DNA of 32,000 bases, taken from the NCBI RefSeq assembly GCF_900232105.1, contig NZ_LT934425.1, positions 1,380,001 to 1,412,000 of the forward strand, read 5' to 3'. Both the position numbers and the translations under genes were made by a program. The notes beneath the pieces were generated by a model. That model saw only the letters and a list, made by a program, of their open reading frames with translations. It was not told the DNA's origin and searched no databases. Of the stretch, positions 3,731 through 32,000 are shown in pieces. This stretch comes from Candidatus Kuenenia stuttgartensis. GTDB lineage: Bacteria; Planctomycetota; Brocadiia; Brocadiales; Brocadiaceae. Position 1 is the stretch's first letter; every line of letters begins with the position of its first letter.

Positions 3731-4933
3731 TTATTTCGCCTCCAGTTTTTTAATTGCCTCTAATACTTTCGACCTGTCGGTTGGGTTTGTCGCATATTTA
3801 ACACAATTCCGGTATTGTTCGAGGGCCTTTGCCGTGTTCTTTTTTGCTTCATAGAGGGCAGCTATGGTAAAATTGGATTCAAAATCCGCCGGGTCGATAT
3901 TCAGCACTTTTTTAAAAGCATCCATGGATGCCTCTCCTTTGTCCTCCAGTAGATACAACACTCCCAACTGTTTGAAATATTTAGCCTGGTTCATAGGGTA
4001 TATTGTTAATGCATGATTGTAGACTGTTATTGCTTTTGAAAAGCTACCGGCAATAACATAGGCATTGGCAAGTTCGTGAAAGAGGTCTAACCCTAAAAAG
4101 GACATGTACCTTATATGTTCTTCATTGCCTGAATCAAATAAATGTATTGCCTTTTCTCCCGTTTTTATTAAACGGTCGATTTTTTCAGGATTCTCCAGAT
4201 AATGGGAAAATAACGTATATTGCAGAACAAACTCTTCCGGCATATCAGAAACAAGTTCCAGTAATTTGTTTTCCGTTTCCTGATATGTGAATTTTCCCTG
4301 ATAGTAACTTTCTATGATATCTTCGGCAGTTTCCATTACTTTGTCTGAAAGGCAAAGTCTTGTGATTTGCTGCACAAGTTTTTCAAACATTTCCGGAATT
4401 TTCTCCGCTGACTCGCATTCCCCCACCAATGCACCCACCGTTTTATCCTTCATCTCCTGCAGTCTTACTGTTTCTATTTCCTTTGCATTTATCACTTCGA
4501 TATCTGCCCGGTATCCTTCGCCAAATTGGGAAAGACTGCCTTTTATCCCGAAATCTGCATTTAATTGCTTTGTCATTTTTACTACTTTTTCCCACTCAAA
4601 ACTAAAAAAAAGGTCTATAATATCTTTATTACTAAAGTTTGAACCTTTTTCCACGTTGTCAATCTTGTAGAAATTATGCAAAACAGTTTTTCTCACATAA
4701 TGGTAAGTACGTTTCTGGTCTATTACGCTAAAAAGACCAGACCGGATTAACTCGCTTTGTATAATACGTTCCACCCCTGCAATTTGACTCTCTGATCCAA
4801 GGTTATACACAAAGGGAAAGATAACAACCTTATATTTTTGTTCCTGCGCAGGCAAGGTTTGCGCTGAAAAGATAAAAAAAGTAATAGTGAATATTAATGA
4901 TGTATAAGTTTTTTTTAACATTTTTAAGGGCAT
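3731..4933 (-). CDS. Secreted TPR-repeat protein (400 aa), function unknown
   Basis: N-terminal signal-like segment (LIFTITFFIFSAQTLPAQE). The C-terminal third has TPR-like helical repeats (AITVYNHALTIYPMNQAKYFKQLGVLYLLEDKGEASMDAFKKVLNIDPADFESNFTIAALYEAKKNTAKALEQYRNCVKY). Confidence 0.7.
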   Translation of the reverse strand: MPLKMLKKTYTSLIFTITFFIFSAQTLPAQEQKYKVVIFPFVYNLGSESQIAGVERIIQSELIRSGLFSVIDQKRTYHYVRKTVLHNFYKIDNVEKGSNFSNKDIIDLFFSFEWEKVVKMTKQLNADFGIKGSLSQFGEGYRADIEVINAKEIETVRLQEMKDKTVGALVGECESAEKIPEMFEKLVQQITRLCLSDKVMETAEDIIESYYQGKFTYQETENKLLELVSDMPEEFVLQYTLFSHYLENPEKIDRLIKTGEKAIHLFDSGNEEHIRYMSFLGLDLFHELANAYVIAGSFSKAITVYNHALTIYPMNQAKYFKQLGVLYLLEDKGEASMDAFKKVLNIDPADFESNFTIAALYEAKKNTAKALEQYRNCVKYATNPTDRSKVLEAIKKLEAK

Positions 4934-9063: not shown

Positions 9064-9140
9064 TACGAAGTACGATTTGGAATTTGGGACTTGGGATTTT
9101 AAATCATACCTCGTAATTCGTAATTCGTAATTCGCTTTTT
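9064..9140 (+). terminator. Long imperfect hairpin plus T-run after proA
   Basis: TACGAAGTACGA (9064-9075) can pair with the (TCGTAAT)n tract at 9111-9134 (11/12). Inner GATTT/AAATC pairing is also possible. The hairpin is followed by CTTTTT (9135-9140). The loop is unusually long, so the call is tentative. Confidence 0.4.
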
Positions 9141-13045: not shown

Positions 13046-13079
13046 CTCGTTCCCAAGCACGAAACACGAAACACGAAAC
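13046..13079. repeat. REP half-site (CTCGTTCCCAAGC) fused to a (CACGAAA)3 heptamer tract
   Basis: Read directly; located 43 nt upstream of the start of the 10460-13003 gene. Confidence 0.75.
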
Positions 13080-13118
13080 AAATTCTAATGACAAAATGAT
13101 TTGAAATTCTAAACAAAT

Positions 13119-13385: not shown

Positions 13386-13522
13386 AAACAAATGCACCTT
13401 TAGTATTTTGCATTTCGTGCTTCTTATTGTTGTATGTTTTGGATTTGTTTTGAATTTTATGCTTTGTTATTCGGATTTGTTTCGTACTTCGTACTTCGTA
13501 TTTCGGATTTCACAATTACTGG

Positions 13523-14479: not shown

Positions 14480-14555
14480 TGGAGTTTTTAACTTTTCAAT
14501 AAGTTGGGATTTTTATAATAATTTCTATCTTTCACTGTCCACAGTCCACAATCTG

Positions 14556-14604
14556 CAGTCGGCAATCCGCAATCCGCAATCCGCAATTTGCCGATTGCCG
14601 ACTG
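14556..14604. repeat. Hairpin CAGTCGGCAATC ... GATTGCCGACTG enclosing a (CCGCAAT)3 heptamer tract
   Basis: Perfect 12-bp arms, located between two minus-strand genes. No adjacent U-tract on either strand. Confidence 0.8.
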
Positions 14605-15983: not shown

Positions 15984-16033
15984 AGAAATTATTTCCCCCC
16001 GGCGCTGTCTTTGTATGCGCCATCAAAAACGCC

Positions 16034-16060
16034 CGTTCCCAAGCTGGCAGACTTTGAACG
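16034..16060. repeat. Degenerate REP (CGTTCCCAAGC-TGGC-AGACTTTGAACG)
   Basis: The left arm is intact and the right arm is decayed; located 51 nt upstream of the 14649-15983 gene start. Confidence 0.6.
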
Positions 16061-16090
16061 AGTGCAAATTTAGAATTTAAAATCTCATAC

Positions 16091-16128
16091 GGCTCATAGC
16101 TCATAGCTCATGGCTTATGGCTTATGGG
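16091..16128. repeat. Heptamer tandem repeat (GGCTCAT/AGCTCAT/GGCTTAT) x5
   Basis: Read directly. Confidence 0.9.
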
Positions 16129-16166
16129 TTTTTTCAACATTTACTGTACATCCACAATTATCACGT

Positions 16167-16553
16167 TTGTCATTGCGAGGGTCTTTTCCGAAGCAACCTC
16201 ATAAACCGTCATAGAGATCCTTCCATCCTGCATTCATTCCATTAATTAATTCTATTTTTTTAGCCCTTGAGCCACCTTTAATTTGCTTCTCCCGGAATAT
16301 GGCGTTTCTTACGTCACGAAATATCTCGTAGTATACTAACTTTGTAACATTGTACTTTTTTGTAAACCCCTCGACCCTCTTCTCTCTATGCTCATATACT
16401 CTTCTTTTAAGATTGTTCGTAACCCCTGTGTAGAGTACGGTATTATTTTTATTCGTCATTATGTAAACAGAGTATAATTTATCCATTACAATCACCTTGA
16501 TTGATCTGGCATTATAAAAAAGATTGCTTCGGAAAAGACCCTCGCAATGACAA
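16167..16553 (-). mobile_element. Compact GIY-YIG cassette bounded by perfect 30-bp inverted repeats
   Basis: TTGTCATTGCGAGGGTCTTTTCCGAAGCAA at 16167-16196 has its exact reverse complement at 16524-16553. The only content between them is the GIY-YIG ORF. Confidence 0.7.
16199..16495 (-). CDS. Small GIY-YIG nuclease-family protein (COG2827/UPF0213-like)
   Basis: YSVYIMTNKNNTVLYTGVTNNLKRRVYEHR forms the GIY...YxG...R core, with a downstream conserved Glu (FREKQIKG). The track start is GTG 16495; ATG 16486 (MDKLYSVYIM..., 95 aa) is the more likely start. Confidence 0.85.
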   Translation of the reverse strand: MIVMDKLYSVYIMTNKNNTVLYTGVTNNLKRRVYEHREKRVEGFTKKYNVTKLVYYEIFRDVRNAIFREKQIKGGSRAKKIELINGMNAGWKDLYDGL

Positions 16554-16768
16554 GTTTTGTAACATTGTACTTTTTTGTAAACCCCTCTACCCTCTTCTCT
16601 CTATGCTCATATACTCTTCTTTTAAGATTGTTCGTAACCCCTGTGTAGAGTACGGTATTATTTTTATTCGTCATTATGTAAACAGAGTATAATTTATCCA
16701 TTACAATCACCTTGATTGATCTGGCATTATAAAAAAGATTGCTTCGGAAAAGACCCTCGCAATGACAA
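16554..16768 (-). pseudogene. 3'-truncated GIY-YIG copy with its own right-hand repeat (215-bp tandem duplication)
   Basis: 16557-16768 repeats 16342-16553 almost exactly. The ORF (track 16492-16710) keeps the first ~53 aa and then reads into the 30-bp repeat (…VTKLVIARVFSEAIFFIM). Confidence 0.8.
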
Positions 16769-16774
16769 GCCGGG

Positions 16775-16795
16775 AGCCATCAGCCATCAGCCATC
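16775..16795. repeat. Heptamer tandem repeat (AGCCATC) x3
   Basis: Read directly. Confidence 0.85.
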
Positions 16796-17187
16796 TTAAA
16801 AATCGCTAAAATCCCCGTCCTCCATAGGAATTATATCTTCCGGCGCTGCCTTTGTCTGCACCATTTTACTGCCGTATCCTTATTATTCAACATATTATGC
16901 CATTATAAATATCTCTTCAGCTTAAAAAATGGCTGAAATGCGCTATGTATTCAGGTTTGGGTGAGGAAAAGAATAAAGGCAAATAATCAACTATTTGAGA
17001 TTTGAATATTGAACATTTTTCTTACTGCGTAACATGAGTTGCACGGTTTTGAAAATTGATGTTCAATGTAAACAACATGGTCTTTGCAAGCTTGGTATAC
17101 CTCCGGCGGGTTCAGGTTTCGTCGTGAGCTCAGCCGAACGGTTGCAAACCTGAACAGTATCAGATTGTCATTGCGAGGGGCGTCAGC

Positions 17188-17427
17188 TTGTCATTGCGAG
17201 GGTCTTTTCCGAAGCAACCTCATAATATCCGTCATAAGAGACCTCGACCCTCTTCTCTCTATGCCCATATACTCTTCTTTTAAGATTATTCGGAACCCAT
17301 GTGTAGAGCACTGTATTAATTTTATTCGTCATTATGTAAACGGAGTCTAATTTATCCATTACAATTACCTTGATTGAATCTGGCATTATAAAAAAGATTG
17401 CTTCGGAAAAGACCCTCGCAATGACAA
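17188..17427 (-). mobile_element. 240-bp internally deleted (non-autonomous) derivative of the GIY-YIG cassette
   Basis: It has the same perfect 30-bp inverted repeats (17188-17217 / 17398-17427). The interior keeps about 47 N-terminal codons (MDKLDSVYIMTNKINTVLYTWVPNNLKRRVYGHREKRVE) joined directly to the 3' end. Confidence 0.75.
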
Positions 17428-17755
17428 GTTGGGACATTTTGGAACCCGCAGGGCGCTGCTGAAGCCACTTGGCTACCCGTGCTACTTCGCGCAATGACAA
17501 AAGCTGAGAGTACCTTTAGGAACCCGCAGAGGTAGTAGTCTTTTTTGCATAACCATTTTTATGAAGGTATACTTCAACAAGGATGGGTTCCATGTTCAAC
17601 GGTTCAGGGGTTTTCATTAGTATACCTCCGGCGGGTTCAGTTTTCGTCGTAAGCTCAGCCGAACGGTTGCAAACCTGAACAGTATCAGATTGTCATTGCG
17701 AGGACATCAGCTTGTCTTTGAAGGGGCATCCGCTTGTCTTTGCGAAAGCATCCGC

Positions 17756-17995
17756 TTGTCATTGCGAGGGTCTTTTCCGAAGCAACCTCATAATATCCGT
17801 CATAAGAGACCTCGACCCTCTTCTCTCTATGCCCATATACTCTTCTTTTAAGATTATTCGGAACCCATGTGTAGAGTACTGTATTAATTTTATTCGCCAT
17901 TATGTAAACGGAGTATAATTTATCCATTACAATTACCTTGATTGAATCTGGCATTATAAAAAAGATTGCTTCGGAAAAGACCCTCGCAATGACAA
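17756..17995 (-). mobile_element. Second 240-bp internally deleted derivative of the GIY-YIG cassette
   Basis: Perfect 30-bp inverted repeats at 17756-17785 / 17966-17995; the interior is nearly identical to 17188-17427. Confidence 0.75.
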
Positions 17996-18259
17996 GCTGA
18001 TGCCCTCGCAATGACAAGTTGGGACATTTTGGAACCCGCAGGGCGCTGCTGAAGCCACTTGGCTACCCGTGCTACTTCGCAATGACAAGTTGATACCCTC
18101 ACAATGACAAGCTGGGAGTACCTTTTGCAACCAGCAGAGGTAGTTTTTTTTGCATAACCGTTTTTATGAAGGTATACTTCAACAAGGATAGGTTCCATGT
18201 TCAACGGTTCAGGGGTTTTCAGCCGTAAAACCCTTCATTTTATTTAAAAATATCCATTT

Positions 18260-19060
18260 ATGACTATCGACGACCCAATAGCAATATTTGATTCAGGGGT
18301 GGGGAGCCTTTCAATAATAAAGGAAATCAGAAATGCCTTGCCCGGCGAGAATTATATCTACCTCGCAGATAAAAAACATTTTCCTTATGGAAAAAAAACA
18401 CACGATGAATTGTTACGCATTATCCGGAACACCATAGAGTATCTTTCGAAAAATTTCACCCCAAAACTCATTGTGCTTGCCTCCAACACGCCTTCCATTC
18501 AGGTGCTTCATGAATTGAAAAAAGGGGCGGTTGACGTTATCGGCGTATTTCCTCCGGTCAATGAAGCTGTAAGTGTCTCCAAAACAGGACACATCGCCAT
18601 TTTGGCAACGCAAAACACGGTAATGAGTTCCGAACTGGACGAGTACATACACTCGCAGAAGATTCCGGCATCGGCAAAAATCATAAAGTGGAATGCCTCA
18701 CGGATGGTAGAGCTTGTGGAAACGGGAGATTTTTTGTCAAATAAGGATAAAAGCCTCAGAATAATCTCCGAAGAGCTTTCACTGTTGGAAGAGACGGATA
18801 ACATGGTCGACACAATTACACTTTCAAGCACACACCTTCCTTTTTTAAATGAATATTTTGCGCTGCTAAGGCCCTGCCTTCATTTAATTGACCCCGCAAA
18901 GATTGTTGCCAGAAAAGTAAAAAGTCTGCTGGAAAGAAATCTTCGTACTACGTCACAAAAAGGAACCCTGGAAATATTGGCCACGCAGGGAAAAGAATCA
19001 CTCGAAACAATCATAAAAAGGCTTGGCATCCAAGAGGAAATACACGAGGTACGGTTTTAG
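18260..19060 (+). CDS. murI: Glutamate racemase-like protein with Ser at both canonical catalytic Cys positions
   Basis: MurI-type N-terminus IAIFDSGVGSLS...YLADKKHFPYGKK. The motif expected as ACNTA reads ASNTP (Ser75, TCC 18482-18484). The motif expected as GCTH reads SSTH (Ser190, AGC 18827-18829). Confidence 0.7.
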   Translation: MTIDDPIAIFDSGVGSLSIIKEIRNALPGENYIYLADKKHFPYGKKTHDELLRIIRNTIEYLSKNFTPKLIVLASNTPSIQVLHELKKGAVDVIGVFPPVNEAVSVSKTGHIAILATQNTVMSSELDEYIHSQKIPASAKIIKWNASRMVELVETGDFLSNKDKSLRIISEELSLLEETDNMVDTITLSSTHLPFLNEYFALLRPCLHLIDPAKIVARKVKSLLERNLRTTSQKGTLEILATQGKESLETIIKRLGIQEEIHEVRF

Positions 19061-19100
19061 AGGTACGAAATACGATTTACAATTTGTACCATGAGCAATT

Positions 19101-19134
19101 AGCCATGAGCCACCAGCCATCAGCCATGAGCCAT
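19101..19134. repeat. Heptamer tandem repeat (AGCCATG/AGCCACC/AGCCATC) x~5
   Basis: Read directly; it abuts and overlaps by 1 nt the stop codon (19134-19136) of the minus-strand gene. Confidence 0.85.
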
Positions 19135-23355: not shown

Positions 23356-23530
23356 ACAATGGCACTGGAAACTATATTTGAGGGTTCAGATTTGTAACCG
23401 TTCGGCTAAGCTCACGACGAACCATTCTTATAGCTCATGGCTCATAGTAATTTGGCTCATGGCTATCAGCACACAAGGGCATCCGTTTGTCATTGCGAGC
23501 GCATCCGTTTGTCATCGCAAGCACATCCGC

Positions 23531-23681
23531 TTGTCATTGCGAGGGTCTTTTCCGAAGCAATCTCATAAACCGTCATAACGAGCCGTGTATCGTTTATGCT
23601 GAATAGTTACATTTTTTTAGCCCTTGAGCCACCCTTAATTTGCTTCTCCCGCGATATGGCGTTTCTTACGTCACGAAATAT
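23531..23681 (-). pseudogene. Solo 30-bp GIY-YIG repeat plus a 3' fragment of a GIY-YIG gene
   Basis: 23531-23560 is 30/30 identical to the left repeat of the cassette. 23611-23681 matches the master gene 3' region (encoding IFRDVRNAISREKQIKGGSRAKK). It is preceded by three 22-bp GCATCCGyTTGTCATTGCGAG sub-repeats (23478-23543). Confidence 0.75.
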
Positions 23682-23729
23682 CCTGAACCCGCCGGGAGTC
23701 GTGTAATGTTTACGCTGAATAATTACAAA

Positions 23730-29830: not shown

Positions 29831-29914
29831 GAAGTCAGAAGTCAGAAGTCAGAAGCCAGAAGCCAGAAGTCAGAAGTCAGAAGTCAGAAGTCAGAAGCCA
29901 GAAGCCAGAGGTCA
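29831..29914. repeat. Heptamer tandem repeat (GAAGTCA/GAAGCCA) x12
   Basis: Read directly. The homologous position in the next two units has only about 3 units. Confidence 0.9.
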
Positions 29915-29960
29915 TAGGGCAGAAGTCGGCAGTCGGCAAATTACAGATTGAGGATTGCAG

Positions 29961-30016
29961 ACTGGGGACTGGGGACTGGGGACTGGGGACTGGGGACTGG
30001 GGACTGGGGACTGGGA
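29961..30016. repeat. Heptamer tandem repeat (ACTGGGG) x8
   Basis: Read directly. The homologous positions at 31011-31024 and 31930-31943 have 2 units. Confidence 0.9.
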
Positions 30017-30058
30017 ACATCTCTCGTTCCCAAGCATCTCTCGTTCCCAGTCTCTCTC

Positions 30059-30264
30059 GTTCCCAAGCTCCGGCGTACACCCTTGTTCCCAAGCTCCGGC
30101 GCACACCCTTGTTCCCAAGCTCCGGCGCACACCCTTGTTCCCAAGCTCCGGCGCACACCCTCGTTCCCAAGCTCCGGCGCACACCCTCGTTCCCAAGCTC
30201 CGGCGTACACCCTTGTTCCCAAGCTCCGGCGTACACCCTTGTTCCCAAGCTCCGGCTTGGGAAT
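30059..30264. repeat. 26-bp tandem array (7 units) of REP half-sites ending in a complete REP palindrome
   Basis: The unit GTTCCCAAGCTCCGGCGyACACCCTy starts at 30059, 30085, 30111, 30137, 30163, 30189 and 30215. The last unit (30241) is completed to GTTCCCAAGC-TCCG-GCTTGGGAA. Confidence 0.9.
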
Positions 30265-30293: not shown

Positions 30294-30827
30294 TCATAAT
30301 TCAATTTGATCTATCTCGATACATCCTTTGCCATAAAGGTAATTCCCTGCGCTCGAATAAACCCAATGTCCGGCATCTTCTACCAGCCCCCTTCTTACAG
30401 GATTGCAATGTATATATGCAACCTTTTGTCTAAACACATCCTCCTGCGCAACCACCTGCGGGTGGAATCCTTCCTGCCATACCTGATATTCGCTGGTAGC
30501 CTTGTGTCCTTTTTTATAAAATTCAAACTGTTTCAGAAGCCGCTTCCTCTGATTCTCTTTTGCTATCCGTATAATTTCCCGCGCAGTATAGCTCTTAAAA
30601 TCTCTTATTATTCCAGACACCGCCTCTGACGAAACAAGAAGGTGTATATGGGTATCCATTACAACATAAGCAAACAATCGCAGCCCTTTTTTCTGTCTGC
30701 AATAAGTTAACGAATTGACTATGATGTCGCAAAATATCTTTTCTGTAAATACCGGTAGCCACCCGACAATTGTAGAGGTTATAAAATACAGGTTGCTGTT
30801 TTTTACTATTTTGTAACGTGATCTCAT
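30294..30827 (-). CDS. REP-associated tyrosine transposase (RAYT; IS200/IS605-like Y1 HUH protein), copy 1
   Basis: HUH motif VVMDTHIHLLV and C-terminal catalytic-Tyr region KVAYIHCNPVRRGLV; 177 aa; REP palindromes on both flanks. Confidence 0.8.
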   Translation of the reverse strand: MRSRYKIVKNSNLYFITSTIVGWLPVFTEKIFCDIIVNSLTYCRQKKGLRLFAYVVMDTHIHLLVSSEAVSGIIRDFKSYTAREIIRIAKENQRKRLLKQFEFYKKGHKATSEYQVWQEGFHPQVVAQEDVFRQKVAYIHCNPVRRGLVEDAGHWVYSSAGNYLYGKGCIEIDQIEL

Positions 30828-30923: not shown

Positions 30924-31067
30924 ACAGTCCTCAATCGGCAATCGGCAGTCAGAAGTCAGAGGTCTGAAGTCGGCAGTCGGCAGTCGGCAAATTACAGATT
31001 GAGGATTGCAGACTGGGGACTGGGAACACCTCTCGTTCCCAGGCATCTCTAGTTCCCAGTCTCTCTC

Positions 31068-31169
31068 GTTCCCAAGCTCCGGCGCACACCCTCGTTCCCA
31101 AGCTCCGGCGTACACCCTTGTTCCCAAGCTCCGGCGTACACCCTTGTTCCCAAGCTCCGGCTTGGGAAT
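31068..31169. repeat. 26-bp tandem array (3 units) plus terminal REP palindrome
   Basis: Units start at 31068, 31094 and 31120; the terminal palindrome is at 31146-31169. Confidence 0.9.
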
Positions 31170-31198: not shown

Positions 31199-31732
31199 TC
31201 ATAATTCAATTTGATCTATCTCGATACATCCTTTGCCATAAAGGTAATTCCCTGCGCTCGAATAAACCCAATGTCCGGCATCTTCTACCAGCCCCCTTCT
31301 TACAGGATTGCAATGTATATATGCAACCTTTTGTCTAAGCACATCCTCCTGCGCAACCATCTGCGGGTGGAATCCTTCCTGCCATACCTGATATTCGCTG
31401 GTCGCCTTGTGTCCTTTTTTGTAAAATTCAAACTGTTTCAGAAGCCGCTTCCTCTGATTCTCTTTTGCTATCCGTATAATTTCCCGCGCAGTATAGCTCT
31501 TAAAATCTCTTATTATTTCAGACGCCGCCTCTGACGAAACAAGGAGGTGTATATGGGTATCCATTACAACATAAGCAAACAATCGCAGCCCTTTTTTCTG
31601 TCTGCAATAAGTTAACGAATTGACTATGATGTCGCAAAATATCTTTTCTGTAAATACCGGTAGCCACCCGACAATTGTAGAGGTTATAAAATACAGGTTG
31701 CTGTTTTTTACTATTTTGTAACGTGACCTCAT
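31199..31732 (-). CDS. REP-associated tyrosine transposase (RAYT), copy 2
   Basis: 177 aa, differing from copy 1 at 4 residues (AVSGI/AASEI, QVVAQEDVF/QMVAQEDVL), with the same flanking palindromes. Confidence 0.8.
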   Translation of the reverse strand: MRSRYKIVKNSNLYFITSTIVGWLPVFTEKIFCDIIVNSLTYCRQKKGLRLFAYVVMDTHIHLLVSSEAASEIIRDFKSYTAREIIRIAKENQRKRLLKQFEFYKKGHKATSEYQVWQEGFHPQMVAQEDVLRQKVAYIHCNPVRRGLVEDAGHWVYSSAGNYLYGKGCIEIDQIEL

Positions 31733-31828: not shown

Positions 31829-32000
31829 ACAGTCTTCAATCGGCAATCGGCAATCGGCAATCGGCAGTCAGAAGTCAGAGGTCTGAAGTCGGCAGTCGGC
31901 AGTCGGCAAATTACAGATTGAGGATTGCAGACTGGGGACTGGGAACACCTCTCGTTCCCAGGCATCTCTAGTTCCCAGTCTCTCTCGTTCCCAAGCTCCG

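Follow-up and report, generated by a model that had tools for sequence, protein, structure and literature searches.

What is the function of a 95-residue nuclease gene that is enclosed by a perfect inverted repeat, and does the unit formed by gene and repeats move? This question is raised by a locus in the genome of the anammox planctomycete Candidatus Kuenenia stuttgartiensis, which we analyzed in a stretch of 32,000 nucleotides (contig NZ_LT934425.1, positions 1,380,001 to 1,412,000; hereafter the window, with positions counted from its first letter). A first-pass annotation had proposed a GIY-YIG nuclease acting together with a cognate inverted repeat, by analogy to REP/RAYT systems. The core of that idea was right. 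The cassette at 16167-16553 very probably (at roughly 0.85) represents a unit of the Ssn family, i.e., a gene for a 95-aa GIY-YIG nuclease (ssn) between inverted cognate hairpin repeats (Ssn-related motifs, SRM), and the order repeat(+)-gene-repeat(-) recurs in 62 of the 85 related loci surveyed. Systems of this kind were already described in 2025 (Chenal et al. 2025; PMC11893778); added here are a repeat dialect outside the published pattern and comparative evidence on mobility.

The ssn gene occupies positions 16199-16486 on the minus strand (stop codon included), and its product consists of a single domain (Pfam GIY-YIG, E 1.4e-17, residues 5-77 of 95; no second domain). On the 3' side of the gene lies a copy of the exact 30-mer TTGTCATTGCGAGGGTCTTTTCCGAAGCAA (16167-16196, plus strand) with its GTCAT end pointing outward, and on the 5' side a second, inverted copy (16524-16553, minus strand); the arms of this inverted pair extend over 33 nt. 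The repeat, hereafter called the module, has at 16167-16196 the design GTC-[ATTGC-GA-inner stem-loop-GAA-GCAAT]-C. The stop codon is 2 nt away from the former copy and the ATG 37 nt away from the latter, and the 37-nt leader in between (16487-16523, minus strand, read from the sequence) contains the motif AAGGTGA, which is likely the ribosome-binding site. Altogether, eight copies of the 30-mer are present in the window without any mismatch (plus strand at 16167, 17188, 17756 and 23531; minus strand at 16524, 16739, 17398 and 17966), with none expected from 100 shuffles. These copies, as well as the intact open reading frame with its gaps of 2 and 37 nt, had been correctly described in the first-pass annotation.

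The same annotation held that small GIY-YIG proteins have no established function, which is outdated, as the Ssn nucleases acting on single-stranded DNA have been described (PMC11893778). SsnA of Neisseria meningitidis is a 94-aa single-domain GIY-YIG protein (CDD family cd10448) whose binding to the NTS repeat CGTCATTCCCGCGMAVGCGGGAATCYRG requires single-stranded DNA in one particular orientation and which cuts a few nucleotides upstream (5') of the repeat; duplex DNA and RNA are not acted upon, and RNA is not bound (PMC11893778). Both sequence and hairpin are recognized: binding depends above all on the C that directly follows the palindrome and cleavage on the three bases preceding it, and the exchanges Y6A, Y17A and E64A abolish cleavage (PMC11893778). 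Homologues from Neisseria and Wolbachia were studied, and in N. meningitidis SsnA lowers transformation by repeat-bearing DNA (PMC11893778). At least one SRM was found near 71% of the homologue genes, and SRM on both sides of 42% (PMC11893778).

As comparison protein served the gonococcal orthologue of SsnA (not the meningococcal SsnA sequence itself), whose gene is surrounded by NTS repeats. The ssn product is 48% identical to it (BLASTP, E 3e-32), and the tblastn match to N. gonorrhoeae (E 6e-22) passes the published homology threshold (tblastn E < 1e-10; PMC11893778). Furthermore, Y8, Y19 and E66 of the Kuenenia protein align with Y6, Y17 and E64 of SsnA and do not vary among 30 homologues. 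Among solved structures, 1ZG2 (UPF0213 protein BH0048, E 3.8e-7) comes closest. Relatives of the protein form more than 8,000 protein clusters in Planctomycetota, Nitrospirota, Chloroflexota, Bacteroidota and others, many of them 72-80% identical. Searches against PADLOC, PHROGs and NCBIfam yielded nothing beyond weak matches to generic GIY-YIG entries, and no defence or phage family in particular. A set of 50,697 phage records contained no close homologue, and viral contigs contained only five distant matches, mostly without modules.

The pairing of gene and repeat is not confined to Kuenenia. In the 85 related loci (Nitrospirota, Bacteroidota and 80 metagenome loci; many phyla), an upstream module was present in 71 cases and a downstream module in 71, with both in the 62 loci mentioned above. 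Modules in the expected orientation occur at a density of about 7 per kb within 100 nt of the gene and about 0.2 per kb beyond 500 nt, i.e., beside the gene they are 35-40 times more frequent than in the background, and their orientation is fixed. Between the end of the 5' module and the start codon there are 2-40 nt, and between the stop and the 3' module 4-12 nt. Analogous hairpins, again starting with GTCAT, flank distant homologues on annotated replicons; they are GTCATTCTGAGTGAAACGAAGAATC in Planktothrix (together with half-module arrays of 23-nt period), GTCATCCCGAGGAACGAGGGATC in Spirosoma, GTCATCCCAGGGCTTGACCCTGGGATC in Rhizobium (a perfect 30-nt inverted pair) and GTCATTCCCGCGCAGGCGGGAATC in N. 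gonorrhoeae, which we take to be the dRS3 repeat.

Inverted repeat doublets without a gene also exist. In other anammox genomes the exact 30-mer mostly does not lie beside a GIY-YIG gene and serves as an arm in an inverted doublet about 82 nt long; a cassette is present in 2 of 23 loci with the exact 30-mer (L014 and L016), where the match to the window is confined to 16167-16554. We considered whether the repeat had spread independently in CAZPUD01, the genome of an uncultured member of the Brocadiaceae, and rejected this, because most exact 30-mers of this genome sit inside a miniature inverted-repeat transposable element (MITE) of about 195 nt. This MITE has terminal inverted repeats of its own (TAGTACACTGTCAACATAATT ... 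AAATTATGTTGACAGTGTACTA), is flanked by TA or CTAG and carries the repeat doublet in its centre (loci L003, L005 with three copies, L007-L009, L011, L013, L017, L019, L020 and L023). Note also that inverted heptamer arrays occupy the loop in some of the repeat doublets from other Brocadiaceae (L008, L019, L020).

Beside the related genes the module follows the pattern GTCATTGCGAG-[variable stem-loop]-CGAAGCAATC. In a sequence logo of 62-66 modules each base of GTC reaches 2.0 bits and the final C 1.7-1.8 bits, and these are the positions that are critical for cleavage and binding in the characterized system (PMC11893778). Conservation breaks off abruptly, on the outer side between a T and GTCATTGCGAG and on the inner side at CGAAGCAATCTC. 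The inner stem varies in sequence while its pairing is kept: the Watson-Crick fraction at pairs 2, 4 and 5 is 0.59-0.73, compared with a maximum of 0.38-0.50 in shuffles, and covarying stems include GCGAAGC, GCCGAAGGC, CCTGCCGAAGGCAGG and GGGCTTTAGCCC. Most loops are C-G-closed GNA triloops (GCGAAGC, GCGTAGC, GCGCAGC), which are a hallmark of stable DNA mini-hairpins. The inner-loop variant is the same at both ends of the K. stuttgartiensis cassette (GGGTCTTTTCC, 16167-16196 and 16524-16553), and the intact cassette of the sister species Kuenenia sp. Bin_40 carries GGGCTTTTTCC at both ends (L159:3929-3962 and 4289-4320), an indication that the two termini evolve in concert. Elsewhere, in most lineages, a cassette has different inner loops in its 5' and 3' modules.

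Several points weigh against the assignment to the Ssn family. The outer ATTGC/GCAAT stem hardly varies (five compensatory cases only), and the nearest-neighbour folding energy of the window module is unremarkable compared with shuffles (z -0.24 as DNA, -1.0 as RNA), so that the case for a hairpin rests on covariation and analogy. The identity to the characterized enzymes is only about 48%, and activity in this clade is predicted from homologues. Anammox bacteria are not known to be naturally transformable. No clean insertion junction was seen, as the filled and empty sites of K. stuttgartiensis and Bin_40 differ by multi-element indels. Finally, the published SRM pattern, HGTCWYN(0-2)YYVSBRHN(0-5)WNVSBRGN(0-2)RNCYNB, matches nothing in the window and only 1 of 80 loci, although the Neisseria and Rhizobium repeats match it. 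This pattern was built by hand from 29 genomes as a search aid (PMC11893778), and its failure therefore points to a new repeat dialect rather than to exclusion from the family. A simpler rule, GTC-[AT..hairpin..AT]-C, covers the anammox, cyanobacterial, Spirosoma, rhizobial and neisserial repeats. The published pattern misses a whole dialect, which may account for part of the Ssn homologues reported without a flanking motif. Small GIY-YIG genes of the COG2827/UPF0213 type with GTCATTGCGAG..GAAGCAATC hairpins, which are abundant in environmental bacteria, can be labelled as Ssn with cognate repeats, and each repeat dialect is a candidate for a new specificity in the site-specific cutting of single-stranded DNA.

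By analogy to SsnA, the Kuenenia enzyme would bind the module as a single-stranded hairpin, and only in the strand reading GTCAT...ATC. Its predicted substrate is single-stranded DNA bearing TTGTCATTGCGAGGGTCTTTTCCGAAGCAATC, which it would nick a few nucleotides 5' of the module, whereas the reverse strand, duplex DNA and RNA would be left alone. As the GTCAT ends of the cassette are both directed outward, the predicted cuts fall just outside each cassette end, one per strand. Cutting may occur whenever the region is single-stranded, e.g., on the lagging-strand template, in incoming transforming or conjugative DNA, or during repair. In the cell, repeat-bearing single strands would be restricted or trimmed, as in Neisseria. 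More speculatively, breaks at the repeats could feed local recombination, which would fit the tandem copies that vary between strains (see below).

Besides the intact cassette, the window contains several incomplete copies. Directly adjacent to it, a 215-bp tandem "head" duplicate (16554-16768, minus strand) comprises a module (16739-16768), the leader and codons 1-64; Tandem Repeats Finder (TRF) reports the duplication at 16341-16769 (period 215, 2.0 copies, 99% identical), as the first-pass annotation had noticed. The tblastn match of the head covers residues 1-64, and the stretch identical to the master copy is the 215-bp repeat itself. This duplication puts codon 64 immediately next to a module's outer edge, a few nucleotides from the predicted cut. 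At higher coordinates lie two mini copies of 240 bp on the minus strand. In mini copy 1 (17188-17427) the two modules, the leader, about 40 codons and the final few are retained and 151 nt of the interior are deleted, and mini copy 2 (17756-17995) is its tandem duplicate (98.3% identical). These 240-bp versions had been recognized before, with about 47 codons retained; their existence is confirmed, and the number of codons has to be corrected to about 40 (tblastn residues 1-39). They had also been compared to MITEs. Being 98.3% identical and lying inside one larger segmental tandem duplication of about 525-605 bp, they go back to one event followed by duplication, i.e., to a deletion derivative that arose in situ and not to transposed copies. 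The larger duplication has its junction in a different repeat, GGTTCAGG; not every rearrangement at this locus uses modules.

Several of the repeats are extended outward by tandem units of 22 nt, each consisting of 14 nt from the outer part of the repeat and 8 further nt. One such outer half-module (TTGTCATTGCGAGG plus 8 nt) precedes mini copy 1 (17166-17187, plus strand), three form an array before mini copy 2 (17690-17755, plus strand; TRF 17684-17770, period 22, four copies), and another lies outside its right end (17996-18017, minus strand), followed by two more degenerate ones at 18076-18108. A further array (23479-23560, plus strand; TRF 23479-23543, period 22, three copies) ends in the full exact module at 23531-23560. 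The two TRF arrays bear out the 22-bp sub-repeats of the first-pass annotation. The module at 23531 is not solitary, as it is followed by a truncated 3' third of ssn: a decayed remnant (23561-23690, minus strand) that is 79-83% identical to the L016 and L014 cassettes (blastn) and is truncated by another repeat, CCTGAACCCGCCGG. Beside the Ssn modules there is a further family of hairpin repeats, GGTTCAGGTTTCGTCGTGAGCTCAGCCGAACGGTTGCAAACCTGAACC, at 17108-17155, 17633-17680 and about 23385-23425 (inverted), as well as at L159:3488-3535 and adjacent to a doublet in L013; this family provides the junction of the tandem duplication of about 570 bp and truncates the remnant at 23690.

The interiors of the mini copies are 93.8-94.3% identical to the master over 176 nt, and their termini show no mismatch in 60 nt. 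The contrast between diverged interiors and identical termini, pointed out previously, holds, with modest significance in the window alone (P ~0.02, counting one independent mini copy). A stronger sign of terminus conservation is the presence of the exact 30-mer in four anammox lineages.

Proteins identical to MurI and to the GIY-YIG protein of the window are encoded in K. stuttgartiensis assemblies including the complete genome CP049055.1, and all these assemblies have the intact cassette in the same spacer between a gene for a 444-446-aa protein and murI. They differ in the number of extra 215-bp heads (0, 1 or 2) and of mini copies (1 or 2; mini copy 2 is absent from several strains), where lower counts need caution because short-read assemblies can collapse tandem repeats. 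The length of the 22-nt array beside a mini copy varies as well, from three units in the window to at least eight in strain L146. The assemblies differ only in tandem copy number at fixed positions, and the change within the species is therefore not one of new insertion sites.

Does the cassette move over longer times? Chenal et al. likened NTS-ssnA-NTS to an insertion sequence and to REP/RAYT and suggested domestication; their analogy to insertion sequences is a hypothesis only (PMC11893778). The median cassette length is 387 nt, the same as in the window (range 0.34-0.51 kb). All-against-all comparison of 86 cassettes with 700-nt flanks revealed many pairs with 80-96% nucleotide identity in which homology extends over only 300-430 nt, i.e., over the cassette. 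The first-pass annotation had seen no target-site duplication; indeed, none is visible in the window, and at 56 related cassettes there was no excess of direct repeats over shuffled pairings. The 0.39-kb unit is supported as a discrete mobile cassette by its unrelated contexts, by its sharp ends (between T and GTCATTGCGAG) and by the lack of a target duplication.

The comparison of K. stuttgartiensis with Bin_40, whose orthologous DNA is 89-95% identical, provides a concrete case on whether Ssn cassettes move. At locus A (444-aa gene to murI), K. stuttgartiensis has the intact cassette and the mini copies, and in Bin_40 neither sub-site contains a module, the 1.18-kb mini block being represented by 13 nt. 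At locus B (94-aa gene to Kdo kinase gene), only the last ~12 nt of the open reading frame and the 3' module are present in K. stuttgartiensis, and a frameshifted cassette in Bin_40. Locus C (response regulator gene to pilin-like gene) has no module in K. stuttgartiensis; in Bin_40 it harbours an intact cassette (97% amino acid and 94% nucleotide identity to that of the window) among module remnants. At locus D (phoU to the gene for a 1591-aa protein; 23479-23690 of the window) the 3' end of a cassette is found in K. stuttgartiensis and the 5' end in Bin_40. Each of the two Kuenenia genomes examined possesses one intact copy, at different loci. This is a pattern of birth and decay of cassettes, and the mini copies, the 215-bp head and the remnant at 23.5 kb are decay and duplication products of such cassettes. 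According to the first-pass annotation, copies that are all syntenic and fixed would speak against a selfish element; they are so within K. stuttgartiensis but not between the sister species, which supports mobility over evolutionary time. Homing into pre-existing repeat doublets, in its simple version, is unsupported, as the empty sites (C in K. stuttgartiensis, A in Bin_40) are without modules.

Gene order around murI differs in more distant relatives, where the comparison of synteny is uninformative. The spacer between the 444-aa gene and murI is a rearrangement hotspot: Bin_40 has a gene for a 1026-aa methyl-accepting chemotaxis protein there (L163:1352-4432), and K. stuttgartiensis only repeats. 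In the place where Bin_40 has a cassette, K. stuttgartiensis has an open reading frame of 518 aa without Pfam match (L152:12442-13998; also L151, L153, L154). Another open reading frame, of 560 aa and located between recD2 and a TPR gene, is present in K. stuttgartiensis L151 and L153 and absent from L152 and L154.

From mobility it is a further step to suppose that the unit mobilizes itself, i.e., that SRM-ssn-SRM is an autonomous transposable or homing element in which Ssn breaks the DNA at the outer edges of the terminal hairpins and the host copies and joins it. This is compatible with membership in the Ssn family and is a stronger claim on function; we regard it as a real possibility that we would nevertheless not bet on. 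The discrete unit of 0.34-0.51 kb with sharp ends and no target-site duplication, the cassettes 80-96% identical in unrelated flanks, and the intact copies of sister species at different loci with empty counterparts all speak in its favour, as do proteins 72-80% identical across many phyla and the frameshifted and deleted copies, which are expected of a selfish element. In Bin_40, cassette remnants cluster beside the intact copy, which suggests insertion next to existing modules. In such an element, Ssn would nick outside each terminal hairpin, and the host would copy the 0.39-kb unit, preferably beside modules already present. Such a mechanism would account for ends that are sharp yet lack a target duplication, for the half-module arrays, for the inner loop shared by both ends and for the differing loci of the sister species. 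On the other hand, GIY-YIG nucleases hydrolyze DNA, with no known covalent intermediate, strand transfer or joining, and nothing in the evidence makes the Ssn nuclease a transposase. Each genome has a single intact copy, which in K. stuttgartiensis is fixed in all assemblies; neither insertion polymorphism within the species nor a clean empty/filled junction was found; and in one genome most repeat copies travel in an ordinary MITE with its own terminal repeats. That a bare 95-aa hydrolytic GIY-YIG nuclease together with host replication and repair makes up an autonomous mobile element of a new mechanistic class is a tentative proposal, and rather doubtful.

The opposite possibility, that ssn is a domesticated, vertically inherited housekeeping or defence gene comparable to RAYT, with repeats that spread or persist for reasons of the host and a cassette that never moves, appears unlikely. 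It would agree with the single copy fixed in all K. stuttgartiensis strains and with the host-level phenotype in Neisseria, the control of transformation (PMC11893778), and a Planktothrix homologue is situated in a defence island. Yet the intact copies of two sister species are non-orthologous despite flanks that are 89-95% identical, homology is confined to the cassette in many locus pairs, and the anammox GIY-YIG proteins resemble each other far more closely than a housekeeping gene does, with 94% identity to a Jettenia homologue, compared with 62-77% for MurI (from other Kuenenia, Brocadia and relatives, a Jettenia MurI not being among them). The Planktothrix homologue (68% identical; Planktothrix agardhii plasmid p1, L155, NZ_LR882964.1 17656-20313) is encoded between an MmeI-type restriction-modification gene and drmA of DISARM, and has its own GTCATTCTGAG..GAAGAATC modules as well as 23-nt half-module arrays.

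The hairpins might also act in the transcript, as terminators, stabilizers or through regulatory long-range pairing of the 5' and 3' modules, in a way unrelated to DNA cleavage. Both modules lie near start and stop and are probably transcribed, and the module is predicted to fold as RNA too; however, Rfam gave no match even when E values up to 10 were admitted, RNA is not bound by SsnA (PMC11893778), the loops are mostly C-G-closed GNA triloops, and modules and half-modules also occur far from gene ends, which makes this explanation very improbable. A known structured RNA was rejected, as Rfam returned nothing at gathering thresholds for the whole window and only noise for 16000-18300 at E up to 10. 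Least probable of all is that the 30-mers are the terminal inverted repeats of an element mobilized by a DDE-type transposase encoded elsewhere, with the GIY-YIG gene as cargo and the 240-bp copies as MITEs: the perfect inverted repeats of 30-33 nt, the short derivatives and the genuine MITE that carries a repeat doublet in one genome are outweighed by the lack of target-site duplications in the window and at 56 cassettes, by ends that in most lineages have different inner hairpins and nothing but the GTCATTGCGAG and CGAAGCAATC parts in common, by the same pairing of gene and repeat with quite different repeat sequences in other phyla, by an encoded family known to bind these repeats (PMC11893778), and by the tandem origin of both mini copies.

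Among known systems, the Ssn/NTS-SRM units, to which the cassette is assigned, resemble it in several ways. They share with it a GIY-YIG protein that has a single domain and about 94 aa (48% identity, with the catalytic Y, Y and E in common), the position of the gene between inverted hairpin repeats of 20-50 nt, the directional repeat with GTC before the palindrome and C after it, and the repeat doublets and clusters elsewhere in the genome (PMC11893778). They differ in the repeat, as the Kuenenia palindrome is ATTGC..GCAAT with a GA/GAA internal loop and a free inner stem-loop and that of Neisseria ATTCCCGCG..CGCGGGAAT, and as the published degenerate pattern misses the Kuenenia repeat. Moreover, Kuenenia has tandem arrays of 22-nt outer half-repeats, its enzyme is a predicted one, and the host is an anammox planctomycete, a phylum unmentioned in the main text of PMC11893778.

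REP/RAYT systems and REPINs (Nunvar 2010 and Ton-Hoang 2012, as cited in PMC11893778) are similar in that a nuclease gene is bracketed by inverted short hairpin repeats, inverted doublets of the repeat are dispersed, the gene is usually present once per genome and single-stranded hairpins are recognized. RAYT, in contrast, is an HUH Y1 transposase with a covalent intermediate that can rejoin DNA, whereas the Kuenenia enzyme is a hydrolytic GIY-YIG nuclease; the repeat-associated gene of the cassette encodes a GIY-YIG protein and not a Y1 (IS200-like) transposase. Two other open reading frames of the window, of 177 aa each, do match Pfam Y1_Tnp (IS200-like, E ~2e-7; 30294-30827 and 31199-31732, both minus strand). 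They adjoin tandem arrays of 16-17 nt and 26 nt (30018-30256, 31030-31161, 31949-31998) and probably represent a REP/RAYT-type system, so that an HUH-based and a GIY-YIG-based nuclease-plus-repeat system would coexist within 32 kb.

IS200/IS605 elements likewise have end hairpins, no target-site duplication and a single-stranded DNA substrate. Their end hairpins, however, lie on the same strand without inverted termini, and their transposase is TnpA (Y1); the Kuenenia modules are inverted, and therefore each strand carries only one cleavable end. With the GIY-YIG homing endonucleases (I-TevI, I-BmoI, phage Seg proteins) the enzyme shares the catalytic fold, and these too live selfishly by means of breaks repaired by the host. 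They differ in having a separate DNA-binding domain, in cutting duplex DNA and in their location in introns or between phage genes, whereas the Kuenenia protein is a bare 95-aa domain; for the NCBIfam group I intron endonuclease the ssn product scored 18 bits against a cut-off of 56.

Short tandem repeats of another kind are frequent in the window. Heptamer arrays in inverted orientation bracket the cassette block (GGCTCAT five times at 16091-16127, AGCCATC three times at 16775-16795). Heptamer tandem repeats fill many other intergenic spacers as well (9074-9134, 13058-13080, 13480-13511, 14545-14587, 19089-19134, 29831-30015, 30935-30989 and 31840-31908).

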